Of a DNA stretch of 64,000 nt, positions 7,216-35,138 are shown piece after piece. The stretch lies in sequence record MT129652.1, one strand, 5' to 3'. How positions within the stretch are numbered: the stretch's first letter is position 1; every line of letters starts with the position of its first letter. A program made the translations under genes and the position numbers. The notes under the pieces were generated by a model that saw only the letters and a program-made list of their open reading frames with translations, did not search any database and was not told the DNA's origin. The stretch comes from Escherichia phage MN01.

Positions 7216-7242
7216 ATTACTCTGAACTGCGAGAAAAATATT

Positions 7243-7371
7243 ATGATTGGTACGCTATTGATTAGTCTGTGGCTGTTGTCTGCATTTGGTATTGGTTTTA
7301 TGTACTGGTGGGACAAACGTCAGACCCGGAAGATTGTTGAACGTGCAATTAATCGTGGATTCAATCGTTAA
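7243..7371 (+). CDS. small membrane peptide (42 aa)
   Basis: Hydrophobic N-terminus then basic tail; speculative. Confidence 0.3.
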   Translation: MIGTLLISLWLLSAFGIGFMYWWDKRQTRKIVERAINRGFNR

Positions 7372-19808: not shown

Positions 19809-20105
19809 ATGTACTACGCATATGTGCTGGTCCACAAAGATAAAGATGGTTTTGAACACCCATTGGAGTATAATGGAAAGGTTACCTTATACACCACAAA
19901 AGCGGGCGCAGAATATGAACTTGCCAACTATTCATATACTACAAACCGATATTTAAGTATGGGACGTATTGAAACCAGTTACATTCCCAGGAAGTGGTGG
20001 TTTGATAAACGGGAAACAAAAACAGTTTTTCCTACTGAAGAACACGCACGAGAATTGAAACAGGTTTTATATACTTTATATGTTAAGCGAGTAAAATTGG
20101 CATGA
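19809..20105 (+). CDS. hypothetical protein
   Basis: 98 aa; ends 4 nt into dda. Confidence 0.45.
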   Translation: MYYAYVLVHKDKDGFEHPLEYNGKVTLYTTKAGAEYELANYSYTTNRYLSMGRIETSYIPRKWWFDKRETKTVFPTEEHARELKQVLYTLYVKRVKLA

Positions 20106-21430
20106 TTAAATTTGAAGACTTGAACACAGGACAAAAAGAAGCTTTTGATTATATCACTGAAGCTATTCAGCGACGTTCAGGGGAATGTATCACTCTGAAT
20201 GGTCCAGCTGGCACAGGTAAGACCACTCTGACAAAATTTGTCATTGACCACTTAGTGCGTAATGGAGTTATGGGAATTGTGCTCGCTGCACCAACTCACC
20301 AGGCGAAAAAAGTTTTATCTAAATTGTCTGGTCAAACAGCGAATACAATCCATAGTATCTTGAAGATTAACCCGACCACATATGAAGACCAAAACGTTTT
20401 TGAACAGCGCGAAATGCCTGACATGTCAAAATGTAATGTTCTGGTTTGCGATGAAGCAAGTATGTATGACGGGTCTCTGTTTAAGATTATTCTTAACTCT
20501 GTTCCTGAATGGTGTACTATTCTTGGGATTGGTGATATGCACCAGCTGCAGCCGGTTGACCCAGGAAGTACACAACAAAAGATAAGTCCATTCTTTACGC
20601 ATCCTAAGTTCAAACAGATTCATTTGACTGAGGTCATGCGAAGCAATGCTCCTATCATTGAAGTGGCGACAGAAATTCGCAATGGTGGTTGGTTCCGCGA
20701 CTGTATGTATGAAGGTCATGGCGTGCAAGGTTTCACCTCACAAACTGCTTTAAAGGATTTCATGGTAAACTATTTCAGTATTGTAAAAGATGCTGATATG
20801 TTGATGGAAAACAGGATGTATGCATACACGAATAAATCAGTTGAAAAACTGAACAATATTATTCGTCGCAAGCTATATGAAACGGATAAAGCATTTTTAC
20901 CGTATGAAGTCCTGGTTATGCAAGAGCCGCACATGAAAGAGCTGGAATTTGAAGGTAAGAAATTCAGCGAAACCATTTTTAATAATGGTCAGTTGGTTCG
21001 CATCAAGGATTGCAAATACACTTCCACCATTCTCCGTTGTAAAGGCGAATCGCACCAGTTAGTGATTAATTACTGGGACCTGGAAGTTGAGTCAATTGAT
21101 GAAGATGAAGAATATCAGGTTGACCGCATTAAAGTTTTACCAGAAGACCAGCAACCAAAATTCCAGGCATATCTGGCGAAAGTTGCTGACACATACAAAC
21201 AGATGAAAGCCGCTGGTAAACGTCCAGAGTGGAAAGACTTCTGGAAAGCGCGCAGGACCTTTTTGAAAGTTCGTGCTCTTCCGGTCAGTACAATCCACAA
21301 GGCCCAGGGCGTTTCAGTGGACAAAGCATTCATCTATACTCCATGCATCCATATGGCCGAAGCTTCATTAGCGAGCCAGTTGGCTTATGTTGGAATCACA
21401 CGAGCGAGGTACGACGCATATTATGTATAA
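20102..21430 (+). CDS. dda: DNA helicase Dda (SF1B)
   Basis: 442 aa (T4 Dda 439); Walker A GPAGTGKTT, DEASM Walker B. Confidence 0.9.
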   Translation: MIKFEDLNTGQKEAFDYITEAIQRRSGECITLNGPAGTGKTTLTKFVIDHLVRNGVMGIVLAAPTHQAKKVLSKLSGQTANTIHSILKINPTTYEDQNVFEQREMPDMSKCNVLVCDEASMYDGSLFKIILNSVPEWCTILGIGDMHQLQPVDPGSTQQKISPFFTHPKFKQIHLTEVMRSNAPIIEVATEIRNGGWFRDCMYEGHGVQGFTSQTALKDFMVNYFSIVKDADMLMENRMYAYTNKSVEKLNNIIRRKLYETDKAFLPYEVLVMQEPHMKELEFEGKKFSETIFNNGQLVRIKDCKYTSTILRCKGESHQLVINYWDLEVESIDEDEEYQVDRIKVLPEDQQPKFQAYLAKVADTYKQMKAAGKRPEWKDFWKARRTFLKVRALPVSTIHKAQGVSVDKAFIYTPCIHMAEASLASQLAYVGITRARYDAYYV

Positions 21431-21668: not shown

Positions 21669-21700
21669 AATTCAAAAATTAAAAGAGATGTGCGATGATT
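21621..21700. repeat. tandem duplication, 2 x 40 bp, at the dexA 5-prime junction
   Basis: GCTGGTGAAATTCAGAAATTAAAAGAGATGTGCGATGGTT followed by a copy with 2 mismatches; second copy carries the dexA start. Confidence 0.8.
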
Positions 21701-22378
21701 GATGCTATTATTGACTTTGAAACTCTGGGAAACGGCTCGAAGGGAGCCGTTATTGACCTGGCTCTGATTACATTCGAATCTGACCCTGCTATTGTGGAAT
21801 CATTCGAAACCCTGGTTAATCGCGGCAAACGTATTAAGTTCAGTCTCGAATACCAAAAAGGTAAGCGGTTGTTCGACACAACAACCATGGGTTGGTGGAA
21901 AAAGCAATCAGCGGAAGCCCGTGTTAACTTGGCTCCTTCTGCACAAGATGTTGATACTCTGACCGGTATCCAACAAGCAATTGATTATCTGAATGGTAAT
22001 GGAATTAACAAATACGAAAGCCTTATGTGGTGTCGTGGAATGTCTTTTGACTTCCCGTTGTTTGTTGACCTTATCCGCGACCTGCAACGCAATGAGGGGA
22101 TTCCTGAGCGCGAATTGAATACCTATGACCTGGAGCCGGTTGTATTCTGGAACCAGCGAGATATCAGGACAGCCATCGAAGCCCTATCACTCGTCCGTAA
22201 GATGTGTGAAACTCCATTACCGAAGGGGACTTTAGATGGATTTGTGGCGCATGATTCGGTGCATGACTGCGCGAAAGATATTTTGATGTTGAAGTATGCC
22301 CAGCGCTATGCTCTTGGTTTAGATGAAGTTCCTTCCGAAGAAGATGCAGACCCATTATCTTTACCGAAAAAACGATAA
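21695..22378 (+). CDS. dexA: exonuclease A DexA (DnaQ-like)
   Basis: 227 aa as T4 DexA; Exo I motif IIDFETLG. Confidence 0.88.
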   Translation: MIDAIIDFETLGNGSKGAVIDLALITFESDPAIVESFETLVNRGKRIKFSLEYQKGKRLFDTTTMGWWKKQSAEARVNLAPSAQDVDTLTGIQQAIDYLNGNGINKYESLMWCRGMSFDFPLFVDLIRDLQRNEGIPERELNTYDLEPVVFWNQRDIRTAIEALSLVRKMCETPLPKGTLDGFVAHDSVHDCAKDILMLKYAQRYALGLDEVPSEEDADPLSLPKKR

Positions 22379-22385
22379 AAAGTAG

Positions 22386-22414
22386 TGTACAAGGCCAATG
22401 GAAAGAGACATAAT
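22386..22414 (+). promoter_or_regulatory. early promoter cassette
   Basis: AAAAGTAGTGTACA, 17 bp, CATAAT; leader CATCAACTACTGATGAGGA. Confidence 0.55.
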
Positions 22415-22445
22415 TATCTCATCAACTACTGATGAGGATAACAAA

Positions 22446-22703
22446 ATGATTACTTCTTTTGAAATTGGCCAACAATATGAAATGTCTGCTCTTCAAGCTG
22501 CTGAAGCAGGTCTGACTAAAGCGTTTGAATGTGCATTTACAAATATTCGTGGTAAAATCTTTACTGTCAATAAAATTGCGGTATATGATAAAGAAACAGA
22601 CATGAACAAAGGCATCTACTTGAACGTGTCAAACGCAAAAGGTCGTCGTGAAATTATGGTTGTACAACCTAACCAACTGGCGATGTTCAATAAGGTTGCA
22701 TAA
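22446..22703 (+). CDS. hypothetical protein
   Basis: 85 aa from SD-preceded ATG; track ORF 22398 reads through the conserved leader. Confidence 0.5.
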   Translation: MITSFEIGQQYEMSALQAAEAGLTKAFECAFTNIRGKIFTVNKIAVYDKETDMNKGIYLNVSNAKGRREIMVVQPNQLAMFNKVA

Positions 22704-23458
22704 TGAAACCAGAATTTATTGACTTTGATGTTGTAAGCATGTATGTTCGCCCAATTAAACCATTAAAACTTGAGAAACAAAATATGACTATTGAAATTAA
22801 CAAAACTTATCAACTGATTGAACCTATTATTCAAAACGCAGCTATGGTTTCTGGGTATAATACTCTGACTGATGCTTTAGGCGAAGGTGAATTTATTGTT
22901 GAAACTTTTGTAAAAAGTAACTGGTTTGATAAAGCATATATTCTACATGCACGTCGCCTTGATACAAATGAAGTAGAAAAAATTACGGTTTATGAAGCTG
23001 AGATTGAACTCTTCAAAGAAGTTGAAGAAACTCCTATCAAAGTTGGTAAAACCTATCAGCTTATTGAAGATGCTAGTCAGTTTGGAAAGACCGTTGCAAT
23101 GCATGCTGGTTGGCGCGTACTGAAAGGTATTTTTGGATTTGCTCCATTTACCGTTAAAACAGTTAAGTACCACAATCACCAAAGCATCTTTGAATTTACT
23201 GCGGTCAATGAATCAGGTGACAATCTTGAAGCTATCCTTTATCCGCGTGAATCTGTACTGCTGGAAGAAGTTAGCGAACTGGGTGACCCTATTGACTTGC
23301 TGTGTAAACCAGTTCAAATCAAACGCCCATTTAACAGTTCCATTTGTGGTTGGGTAACAGACCAGTGGATTGAAGAGGGTGTTGAACTCCTGAACGTTGT
23401 TCATGCTGGTGAATTTACTGTTGTACCACGTTCCATGGTTGTTGAAATTTTTAATTAA
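22703..23458 (+). CDS. hypothetical protein (paralog family A)
   Basis: 251 aa; C-terminal TDQWIEEGVELLNVVHAGEFTVVP shared with 23538..24098. Confidence 0.55.
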   Translation: MKPEFIDFDVVSMYVRPIKPLKLEKQNMTIEINKTYQLIEPIIQNAAMVSGYNTLTDALGEGEFIVETFVKSNWFDKAYILHARRLDTNEVEKITVYEAEIELFKEVEETPIKVGKTYQLIEDASQFGKTVAMHAGWRVLKGIFGFAPFTVKTVKYHNHQSIFEFTAVNESGDNLEAILYPRESVLLEEVSELGDPIDLLCKPVQIKRPFNSSICGWVTDQWIEEGVELLNVVHAGEFTVVPRSMVVEIFN

Positions 23459-23466
23459 ATTTAAAG

Positions 23467-23500
23467 TGTACAAACTCTTGGGGTCGGAGTATAATGACCC
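23467..23500 (+). promoter_or_regulatory. early promoter cassette with inverted repeat bracketing -10
   Basis: TGTACA, 17 bp, TATAAT; TGGGGTC...GACCCCA flanks the -10. Confidence 0.55.
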
Positions 23501-23537
23501 CACTGGAGAATAAACTTATTAACCAAGAGAGAAAATT

Positions 23538-24098
23538 ATGAAAGTTGAAGCTGGCGAAATCGTTCGCGTATCCAAAAAATCTCGTTCAAGAGCTGCTGGA
23601 CGTTTTGTTGAGGTTGTCAGTATTCGTGCTGATATTTTTGTTGACCATCCTGATAATGAAGTAAAGGTGCGTATCATTCCCAAAAATGGTCAGACTGAAA
23701 CTCAATTCGCTTATGTACGTGCTAAATTCCTGGAATCAACTGCTATCACTGCCACCAACCTCCCTGTGGTTGAAGAAGTTGAATCCCATGATGGATATGT
23801 GTGCGAAAGCAATGATATTCGTGGCGTAATTGCTCAAGACGTTGAAACCATTGACCAGTCTCATGTTGGGGTTGATTTTAAATGGAAATTGGGCAAAGGT
23901 GTCTTTTTTGTTTCACCTAAACCGTTTGAATATGTTGACGAACCTTTTGGTACTTATGAAACCACTAGCATGTCTGGTTACATCACAGACCAGTGGGTTG
24001 AAGAAGGCGTTAAGCTCTATAACATCGTGTTCCTTGGAACCTTTAAGGTGGTTCCTGAAAGCTTTATCGTTGAGTATGCTGATATTCATCGTGCCTAA
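23538..24098 (+). CDS. hypothetical protein (paralog family A)
   Basis: 186 aa; C-terminal TDQWVEEGVKLYNIVFLGTFKVVP; own promoter cassette. Confidence 0.55.
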   Translation: MKVEAGEIVRVSKKSRSRAAGRFVEVVSIRADIFVDHPDNEVKVRIIPKNGQTETQFAYVRAKFLESTAITATNLPVVEEVESHDGYVCESNDIRGVIAQDVETIDQSHVGVDFKWKLGKGVFFVSPKPFEYVDEPFGTYETTSMSGYITDQWVEEGVKLYNIVFLGTFKVVPESFIVEYADIHRA

Positions 24099-24146
24099 AT
24101 TATAAAAATGATAGGGTAATTTTGCCCTATCAATGAGGAGAATATT

Positions 24147-24371
24147 ATGTTTAATGAAGATTGTGTAACCACTTCCCTGACCGCTGAAGAGTTTTGGGAT
24201 ACTGCTGAAAGTGATAAAGTGATTGTGAAGAAAAACATCAATGAATTTCTTTGCACCACTGATATCATTTATGTGTATGCAGACAAAGACGCAGAACTAC
24301 CTAGCTATGCACTGTTCCGCGAAGAATCAGAAAATGGTACAGATTTTTGGAAGGAGATTTATAATGTCTAA
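24147..24371 (+). CDS. hypothetical protein
   Basis: 74 aa; SD GAGGAG. Confidence 0.45.
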   Translation: MFNEDCVTTSLTAEEFWDTAESDKVIVKKNINEFLCTTDIIYVYADKDAELPSYALFREESENGTDFWKEIYNV

Positions 24372-24735
24372 ATTTGAAACTGATAAGTGGTATTATTTTA
24401 AAGATAATGTTGCTGAAAGCAGATTCCGTTTGTTATGCTCTGATAATGATAATATAGCCAATGCTATAATCAATGGCGAGGGATTTAGACCAGTCAGAAT
24501 TGAAGATGGTGATGTGTATAAAATGGAATTATCAACTGGTGAATTTGTGAGCCTATTCATAAAGGAAGATGAATTCCGTTTCTTTGAAGAAGAAAAAGAT
24601 GACGATACTGAAGATGAATGCGAAGACGCAGCTCCATCTGAGCCAAGCGAATTCCCTTTGACTAAAATCACCATCTCTAATAACTCCGAAGCCTGGACCG
24701 TTTACCAGATGTTGAAAGCACACTTTAAGGAATAA
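24364..24735 (+). CDS. hypothetical acidic protein
   Basis: 123 aa from internal ATG; acidic C-terminal stretch. Confidence 0.5.
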   Translation: MSKFETDKWYYFKDNVAESRFRLLCSDNDNIANAIINGEGFRPVRIEDGDVYKMELSTGEFVSLFIKEDEFRFFEEEKDDDTEDECEDAAPSEPSEFPLTKITISNNSEAWTVYQMLKAHFKE

Positions 24736-24919: not shown

Positions 24920-25180
24920 ATGAAATACATTAATCGTTCTATTGCCGCGCTGGTGCTGGCGGTTTCATTGGCTGGTTGTACTGATGCAGATAACGCCATT
25001 CGTGTATTAGATGCAAACGGCTATGAGCAAATCCAAATCACCGGTTATAACTGGTTGGGTTGCTCTGAAGATGATTTTCAGCATACTGGTTTTACAGCCG
25101 TAGGCCCAACTGGTAAGAAAGTTAAAGGAACTGTTTGTTCTGGTTTGCTGTTTAAGAATTCAACCATCCGATTTGAATGA
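24920..25180 (+). CDS. putative lipoprotein
   Basis: 86 aa; signal peptide with lipobox LAGC. Confidence 0.5.
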   Translation: MKYINRSIAALVLAVSLAGCTDADNAIRVLDANGYEQIQITGYNWLGCSEDDFQHTGFTAVGPTGKKVKGTVCSGLLFKNSTIRFE

Positions 25181-25187
25181 GGCTATT

Positions 25188-25592
25188 ATGTTTAAAATTG
25201 GAAAGAGTTATTGCATTAAAGATTTAGATGGCTTCCTTAAACATGTCGGTATGCCCGGTAGCATTTTGAACCAACAAGGAACCTCTATTATTGATTTGGT
25301 TACTACCAAAGAGTTTTCAGTCACTAAGATGGAAGCAAATGTTGTTACGGAATTTAGTACTATCGATGGAACTGGATTTTCTTTCCATAGTCGTAATGGA
25401 ACCGGTCTTATTTTTGGTGATGAATTTAAATATTTTGAAGAAACCCCGATAAAGGAATGTGATTCTGAAATAACCGAACAGGAATCAAAAGAGGATATCG
25501 TTGTTACCGGTGGCGATGTTATTATTACGGTTAAAACTGAAGTCGGACGCCTACAAGCTATTAAAATGTTAGAGCAGCTTCGATTCAAATAA
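25188..25592 (+). CDS. hypothetical protein
   Basis: 134 aa (alt. start 25173); followed by CUUCGG terminator. Confidence 0.5.
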   Translation: MFKIGKSYCIKDLDGFLKHVGMPGSILNQQGTSIIDLVTTKEFSVTKMEANVVTEFSTIDGTGFSFHSRNGTGLIFGDEFKYFEETPIKECDSEITEQESKEDIVVTGGDVIITVKTEVGRLQAIKMLEQLRFK

Positions 25593-33321: not shown

Positions 33322-33350
33322 TGTACATCAGTATGGAGTCTATGTATAAT
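33322..33350 (+). promoter_or_regulatory. early promoter cassette
   Basis: AAAAGTAGTGTACA, 17 bp, TATAAT; leader CCATACTGAGTTACCAAA. Confidence 0.55.
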
Positions 33351-35104: not shown

Positions 35105-35138
35105 TGTACAAACTCTTGGGGTCTGAGTATAATGACCC
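35105..35138 (+). promoter_or_regulatory. early promoter cassette
   Basis: TAGTGTACA, 17 bp, TATAAT; TGGGGTC...GACCCCA nearly identical to the 23467 cassette. Confidence 0.55.

Follow-up and report, generated by a model that had tools for sequence, protein, structure and literature searches.

A window of 64,000 nucleotides from Escherichia phage MN01 (sequence record MT129652.1) carries, in its early region, two neighboring open reading frames (ORFs) on the plus strand, at 22703-23458 (251 aa) and 23538-24098 (186 aa), which share a small C-terminal module. The two are best explained as the adjacent early genes motB.1, in a 251-aa variant, and motB of a T4-like phage, a reading that we hold with a probability of about 0.8. 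Earlier descriptions exist for both genes, for the domain that they share and for the promoter cassette, and the finding is real but ordinary. What is new is limited to a few small points: an SH3-like fold prediction for the module, a tandem barrel duplication in the 251-aa protein, covariation in the promoter hairpin and a frameshift in the T4 reference sequence. An earlier, sequence-only reading had placed both ORFs correctly, as well as the common module behind divergent N-termini, the paralogy of the two genes and the separate promoter of the second; it erred in regarding the proteins as orphans whose module matches no T4 protein.

The 186-aa protein is, judged from its sequence, MotB. It matches the Pfam family PF17613 with 193.8 bits (E 2.3e-57; curated gathering threshold 25 bits), covers positions 1-166 of the 166-position profile phrog_1671 (E 4e-69) and aligns with T4 MotB along the entire length at 51% identity (E 6e-60). 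The complete two-domain layout of MotB, with a KOW-like N-terminal domain and a C-terminal domain, is recovered by the phrog_1671 match, by two barrels in an AlphaFold2 (AF2) model and by the alignment. The N-terminal KOW/SH3-like barrel is predicted at 23538-23738 (residues 1-67) and is followed by an acidic linker at 23742-23858 (residues 69-107), which is predicted to be disordered with a predicted local distance difference test (pLDDT) score below 50. The likeness to T4 MotB extends from this layout to the site of the gene between motB.1 and cef and to an early promoter with the same -35 box, spacing and -10 box. In contrast to the basic T4 protein (pI 9.2), the MotB of the window is acidic overall (pI 5.1), and its linker holds an acidic insertion of about 21 aa (VESHDGYVCESNDIRGVIAQD) that is shared with some close relatives and is absent from the aligned SP18 and T4 MotB sequences. 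Owing to this indel, alignments of the DNA with SP18-type phages are broken into two segments. A Shine-Dalgarno sequence, GAGAG at 23527-23531, and the motB start codon at 23538-23540 were read from the sequence and are conserved in related loci.

The 251-aa protein belongs with MotB.1. It matches phrog_2333 (E 1.4e-77), and residues 2-115 of T4 MotB.1 align with its residues 112-223 at 37% identity (E 2e-16). Its counterpart in phage SP18 (YP_003934637), also 251 aa long, is annotated motB.1, and JS98-type records likewise give this name to the gene upstream of motB. The module of the 251-aa protein also reaches PF17613 above threshold (33.3 bits, E 5.5e-8), at profile positions 118-154 only. 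Since the protein has just this C-terminal part of the profile, roughly the last 40 positions, and not the full MotB architecture, it is a MotB.1-type relative rather than a MotB. Gene order points the same way. ORF identities in the window were assigned from Pfam and PHROG matches, and the resulting order is that of the T4 dda-to-39 early region, with motB placed as in T4, flanked by dexA/motB.1 and by cef, and the 251-aa gene directly upstream of it when the order is compared with T4 and SP18. Together, the E-values and the gene order rule out that the matches to PF17613, T4 MotB and T4 MotB.1 are artefacts. The arrangement is a general one, as the gene immediately 5' of motB has the terminal module in 19 of 19 related loci, including all 16 with the promoter cassette as counted separately; in RB69-like loci, this module-ending gene is a second copy of motB.

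The module itself is compact. A BLASTP comparison of the two proteins yields a single significant segment, residues 202-248 against 128-179, with 25 of 52 positions identical (E 6e-13), and no similarity between their N-terminal parts. The module occupies 23288-23455 in the 251-aa gene (residues 196-251) and, taken as the BLASTP segment, 23919-24074 in motB (residues 128-179), where it lies inside a C-terminal barrel with predicted strands over residues 121-180. An alignment of 23 non-redundant C-termini, drawn from both families, has eight columns without any variation (D, W, E, G, L, N, V, V), and the core reads G(W/Y/F)(V/I)(T/S)DQW(V/I)E(D/E)G.(K/E)L(Y/L)N(V/I)V. The motif given in the sequence-only reading is correct overall and fails at one position, as the 186-aa protein carries S-F-I-V-E where S.VVE had been written. 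The idea that two small proteins of separate origin match here by chance or through their composition, to which the shortness of the segment (about 50 aa) might lend some color, can be regarded as already refuted and its probability as negligible: the pairwise E-value, the eight invariant columns across diverse sequences, the same strand pattern in both AF2 models and the recurrence of the module behind three kinds of N-terminus in many phages all speak against it. The module is the best-conserved part of these proteins and has been retained while the N-terminal domains were swapped.

The domain is rare and already has a name. An exhaustive HMMER search of 1.84 billion cluster representatives with the module profile found only 32 clusters at 50% identity; every convincing match is a small phage protein whose N-terminus is of the KOW or the MotB.1 type, and the family is confined in this search to T4-like phages. 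This narrow distribution, along with the lack of any relative of solved structure, is what could be said for the proposal that the module is an uncharacterized family newly found duplicated in the early region. The proposal is nevertheless highly improbable, and its claim to novelty is refuted by PF17613 and by the work of Patterson-West et al. 2021 (PMC7827196), who described a common C-terminal domain of MotB and MotB.1 with swapped N-terminal domains, proposed a gene duplication, divided 102 homologues from phages among four categories according to the N-terminal domain, with T4 MotB.1 and MotB.1-like proteins in categories 2-4, and listed SP18 gp012 (YP_003934637), the counterpart of the 251-aa protein. 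MotB-like PHROG families exist as well, and database proteins share 98% identity with the 251-aa protein and 95% with the 186-aa protein. With near-identical sequences already in the databases, the locus carries little weight as a discovery; the fold prediction, the domain charges and the apparent truncation of the T4 reference motB.1 may still be of use to those who study T4 early proteins. The sequence-only reading had accepted that it would fall if the module proved to be a well-characterized domain of known function; this holds by half, for the naming and publication of the domain and not for a biochemical function of its own.

Some matches at the edge of the profile search were set aside. 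Three tail-fibre-like proteins of 601-862 aa (P0259, P0263 and P0264) contain many SGYATEQWVEDKGYLTEHQSL copies that resemble the module core GYITDQWVEDGVKLYN. They were rejected as homologues and judged similar at the level of a short motif; their E-values of 1e-6 to 3e-4 are summed over 4-5 repeats, and P0259 has a phage tail-tip domain and scores below the PF17613 threshold. The resemblance probably reflects convergence of a beta-hairpin motif. Pfam matches to BRICHOS, Peptidase_S74 and DUF4299 were far under threshold and were disregarded. A metagenomic protein of 43 aa, P0260, joins a MotB.2 N-terminus (MKIYRVESSFSIL.YED) straight to a module tail (GVELLNVVHAGDFSVVPRSAVVAILN). A deletion that linked motB.2 with the last part of motB.1 appears to lie behind this protein, for which the 29-aa RB69 'category 3' peptide of PMC7827196 offers a parallel.

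In the 251-aa protein, the part in front of the module contains a tandem duplication of the MotB.1-type N-terminal barrel, an addition of the present work. Homologues of about 180 aa align to it twice, at residues 4-109 with about 60% identity and at residues 112-251 with about 45%, and the two copies recognize each other in hhalign (residues 30-109 against 112-192; probability 99.8%, E 8e-28). This double alignment and the hhalign result mark off four parts in the protein: a short motif at the N-terminus, barrels A and B, and the module. Barrel A (22790-23029, residues 30-109) corresponds to the single N-terminal domain of the MotB.1-like proteins of about 180 aa, and barrel B (23036-23278, residues 112-192) to the N-terminal domain of T4 MotB.1. 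Residues 112-251 are thus equivalent to full-length MotB.1, barrel plus module, and the difference from the T4 protein lies in the extra barrel copy and the N-terminal motif (IDFDVVSMYV.PIKPL). With AlphaFold3, Kim et al. 2025 (PMC12152347) modelled the N-terminal domain of T4 MotB.1 (residues 1-82), alongside GoF and Frd.2, as a barrel of LSm-like/SH3-like type, and by analogy with that work both barrels of the 251-aa protein may be LSm-like.

Relatives of the protein show other domain combinations, from 143-144 aa for barrel B plus module (T4T, P0242), through about 165 and about 180 aa for the N-terminal motif, one barrel and the module, to about 248 aa for forms with a further N-terminal domain in front, compared with 251 aa in the window. 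In distant phages, relatives of 126-199 aa combine a KOW-type N-terminus with a MotB.1-type module; the N-terminus of one of these, P0258, passes the Pfam KOW model (PF00467). The N-terminal motif, (I/V)D.D(V/I)..MY...(I/L).P(L/I), lies at 22718-22768 (residues 6-22), before barrel A, as in MotB.1-like proteins. The same motif occurs in the linker of the distant KOW-plus-module proteins, directly before DPTDLLC; the proteins listed for the motif, besides the 251-aa one, are P0248, P0254, P0255, P0256 and P0245. This position suggests an ancestral KOW-linker-module protein whose linker took up the LSm-like barrels by insertion.

Structure prediction places the module among the SH3-like small beta-barrels. 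For the 251-aa protein, AF2 was run on residues 182-251 and returned a model with a mean pLDDT of 80.7 and blocks of 87-94 across the last 50 residues. Its five strands are antiparallel, a short helical turn separates strands 4 and 5, and the model superposes on known members of this fold; the AF2 model of the MotB module has the same strand order and a longer first hairpin. The figures listed by structure comparison are 7.8 for the 53BP1 Tudor domain, about 7.5 for BAH cores, 7.5 for the PHF19 Tudor, 7.3 for the ERCC6L2 Tudor, 7.0 for the Spt5 KOW and 6-7 for PWWP domains. Sequence identity to such barrels (Tudor of 53BP1 and PHF19, KOW of Spt5 and NusG, PWWP, BAH cores) is only 8-17%, and a Pfam search found no KOW, Tudor or PWWP match within the module, so that the relation to these families is one of fold resemblance and not of membership. 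An OB fold of the cold-shock DNA-binding class has been proposed from HHpred for the C-terminal domain of MotB (PMC7827196). This proposal was not reproduced in the predicted models; OB topology and likeness to OB proteins, for instance the C-terminal domain of eIF5A, were not found for the module. A Tudor-like barrel in place of an OB fold would change which surfaces are to be mutated.

Taken together, both proteins are best read as small beta-barrels in a row, closed in each case by the same PF17613 C-terminal barrel: in MotB, a basic KOW-like barrel, an acidic disordered linker and the module; in the 251-aa protein, a short conserved motif, two tandem LSm-like barrels of the MotB.1 type and the module. 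The pair probably arose by tandem gene duplication and exchange of N-terminal domains, with a further internal duplication in this lineage, and motB has its own early promoter.

The action of MotB has been studied in T4, and DNA binding with an effect on H-NS, the experimental definition of MotB, is known for the T4 protein only. T4 MotB binds DNA tightly and non-specifically, and H-NS and StpA co-purify with it only when DNA is present (Patterson-West et al. 2018, 2021; PMC6070864, PMC7827196). According to the same studies, it protects DNA almost completely at a ratio of about 2.4 monomers per bp, converts the H-NS footprint to a MotB-like one, up-regulates 75 host genes, of which about one third belong to the H-NS regulon, and confers a twofold benefit in burst size. 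In the window, net charge is unevenly distributed along the proteins, at +4 (pI 9.9) for the N-terminal barrel of MotB, -8 (pI 4.05) for its linker, -6 (pI 4.35) for its module and -2 (pI 5.06) for the module of the 251-aa protein. These charges suggest that the KOW-like N-terminal barrel, and not the module, carries DNA binding. The charge of the module, its high conservation and its retention despite N-terminal exchange point to a role in protein contact. In a tentative reading, for which we see somewhat less than even odds, the N-terminal barrels would bind nucleic acid and the module would be a common protein-contact surface. Such a surface could serve cooperative self-association and coating, pairing of MotB with MotB.1, or docking on a common partner.

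Several points weigh against this fold and this division of labor. The fold comes from AF2 models whose alignments were shallow, at 23 and 45 sequences, and whose mean pLDDT values were 80.7 and 72.6; the two domain roles are read from charge and conservation only. Small size and five strands are common to barrels of the SH3-like and OB types, and many barrels of the Tudor, KOW and PWWP classes bind nucleic acids. Sequence searches of the PDB gave no usable relative: the 186-aa protein had one meaningless match (E 0.57), and profiles of the module and of MotB found nothing at E up to 10. Acidity is not universal either, as the C-terminal region of T4 MotB is about neutral (+1), and no DNA-independent interaction of MotB with H-NS was detected in the published T4 work (PMC7827196). 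The near-neutral T4 domain and the nucleic-acid binding of related barrels would also fit the published alternative, in which the module itself is a DNA-binding, cold-shock-like OB fold that would give MotB and MotB.1-type proteins a common capacity to bind DNA or RNA, and the N-terminal barrels add specificity or partners; we regard this alternative as unlikely. Returning to the protein-contact reading, its most elaborate form would make the module an acidic SH3/Tudor-like docking or oligomerization unit that joins KOW-like and LSm-like barrels to each other or to a common host partner, with MotB and MotB.1-type proteins forming a hetero-oligomeric system for nucleoid or RNA remodelling instead of working independently. 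This form is unlikely as well.

The comparison with T4 brought out an apparent error in the reference sequence. In NC_000866.4, motB.1 (about 7218-7309, minus strand) contains one extra G (ATTGGAAGA versus ATTGAAGA), and the encoded MotB.1 is 119 aa long and ends in ...WVTDQWIGRWR*. The 28-aa tail is intact in the next frame, and without the extra G the protein has 143 aa and a complete module. The T4T record HM137666 lacks the extra G, and the other T4, RB55 and RB59 records listed match at 200 of 201 nt. It thus appears, from comparison of these sequences, that one surplus G cuts the T4 reference motB.1 short, and none of the other T4 records examined has it. Published work on T4 MotB.1 refers to a 13.8-kDa protein, takes its mutagenesis coordinates from NC_000866.4 and mentions no frameshift. 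Experiments with the 119-aa form may have used a protein that misses half of its conserved domain. If the docking role outlined above were true, the published negative results on T4 MotB.1 would be partly explained, provided that the constructs carried the 119-aa form without the second half of the module.

The spacer of 79 bp between the two genes holds the promoter of motB. This early sigma-70-type promoter (23467-23495, plus strand) consists of TGTACA (23467-23472), 17 nt and TATAAT (23490-23495), matches the consensus at 10 of 12 positions in a promoter scan and is preceded by an AT-rich stretch at 23445-23466. A stem-loop at 23479-23502 is superimposed on it, with a 7-bp stem of TGGGGTC (23479-23485) and GACCCCA (23496-23502) and a 10-nt loop that contains the -10 box. 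By its layout, the cassette is a promoter-early stem-loop (PeSL), a class of element described by Arbiol et al. 2010 (PMC2839356), in whose collection stem-loops overlapping the -10 box are among the commonest layouts. The characteristic features are all present, namely a sigma-70-like promoter with spacing of about 17 nt, an AT-rich stretch before it, a Shine-Dalgarno sequence and start codon after it, and a stem-loop within or beside the promoter, repeated in variable genome regions. PeSLs have been defined in RB49/phi1, PST/T4 and nt-1/KVP40 (Arbiol et al. 2010; Comeau et al. 2014); the PST/T4 stems were drawn just upstream of the promoter, whereas the stems of the window and of T4 motB bracket the -10 box. 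Promoter and attenuator activities were shown for the RB49/phi1 copies (PMC2839356), and by analogy the motB cassette may have both.

The hairpin is kept by compensatory changes, an addition of the present work that comes from aligned sequences. The same -35 box, spacing, -10 box and hairpin layout lie 5' of motB in T4, in SP18 and in 13 IMG/VR loci, and three different stems occupy the same position (GGGGTC/GACCCC, GGGACC/GGTCCC and GAGAGCC/GGCTCTC). Across these 15 sequences, all 100 of 100 cells are paired and four of the seven pairs have changed on both sides, compared with at most 51% pairing in controls with slid partners. The fold energy of the hairpin is only marginally better than that of shuffled sequence (z -1.7), and stability alone would therefore not have revealed it.

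Two other readings of the inverted repeat, as an intrinsic terminator of motB.1 transcription or as an accident of the promoter spacer, seem doubtful. The position of the repeat 3' of the motB.1 stop codon would suit a terminator, and PeSL stem-loops of RB49/phi1 cut read-through in reporter assays (PMC2839356); no U-run follows the stem on the plus strand, however, and the hairpin is not listed by the scan, for which reasons a canonical intrinsic terminator was rejected. Accident is excluded by the covariation, in which three stem sequences at one position pair in every cell. A transcript starting about 7 nt past the -10 box lacks the 5' arm of the stem, so that the conserved hairpin can form only in motB.1 read-through RNA or in (single-stranded) DNA.

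The sequence GGAG, the target of the T4 endoribonuclease RegB, is found in the hairpin loop at 23486-23489 and again at 23505-23508, 3 nt past the stem. The downstream copy is kept in T4 and most relatives and is GGAT in two JS98-type loci (L006 and L007). Processing of read-through mRNA at these motifs is possible. The window contains four PeSL copies in all. The three others, also on the plus strand, have TATAAT at 33345, 34715 and 35128. They share GTGTACA in the -35 region with the motB cassette, and in each the stem encloses the -10 box; the TGGGGTC/GACCCCA stem recurs unchanged at 35128, and at 33345 the stem is 13 bp long. By analogy with other repeated elements of this class, the copies could mediate recombination in the variable early region.

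The DNA as a whole comes from a T4-like phage, whose nearest relatives are TH40 and vB_EcoM_RZ (96% DNA identity to the window) and Shigella phage SP18 of the genus Gaprivervirus (93%). All genes of the surrounding segment lie on the plus strand: dda (20102-21430), a 93-aa ORF between dda and dexA, dexA (21695-22378), a 101-aa ORF (22398-22703), the motB.1-family gene and motB, cef (24147-24371), a goF-like ORF, gene 39.2, gene 39.1 and a 139-aa ORF in that order, and gene 39 from 25658. The ORFs at 24364-24735 (123 aa) and 25173-25592 (139 aa) both belong to phrog_622 with partial goF matches, and by these matches the region holds several small proteins of the GoF/Frd.2 type besides the two MotB.1-type barrels. 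The structure-based kinship of MotB.1 and GoF (PMC12152347) left no sequence trace by hhalign, in which the MotB.1 N-terminal barrel compared with the 101-aa ORF, the GoF-like 123-aa ORF, the 139-aa ORF, T4 GoF and T4 MotB.2 gave probabilities of at most 1.1%; the sole sequence hint of a link is a weak PHROG match to phrog_622 (E 0.007). Finally, between the motB stop and the cef start, an 8-bp hairpin (TGATAGGG...CCCTATCA) at 24109-24132 is followed by a T-run only on the minus strand and scores as a terminator for the non-coding strand.

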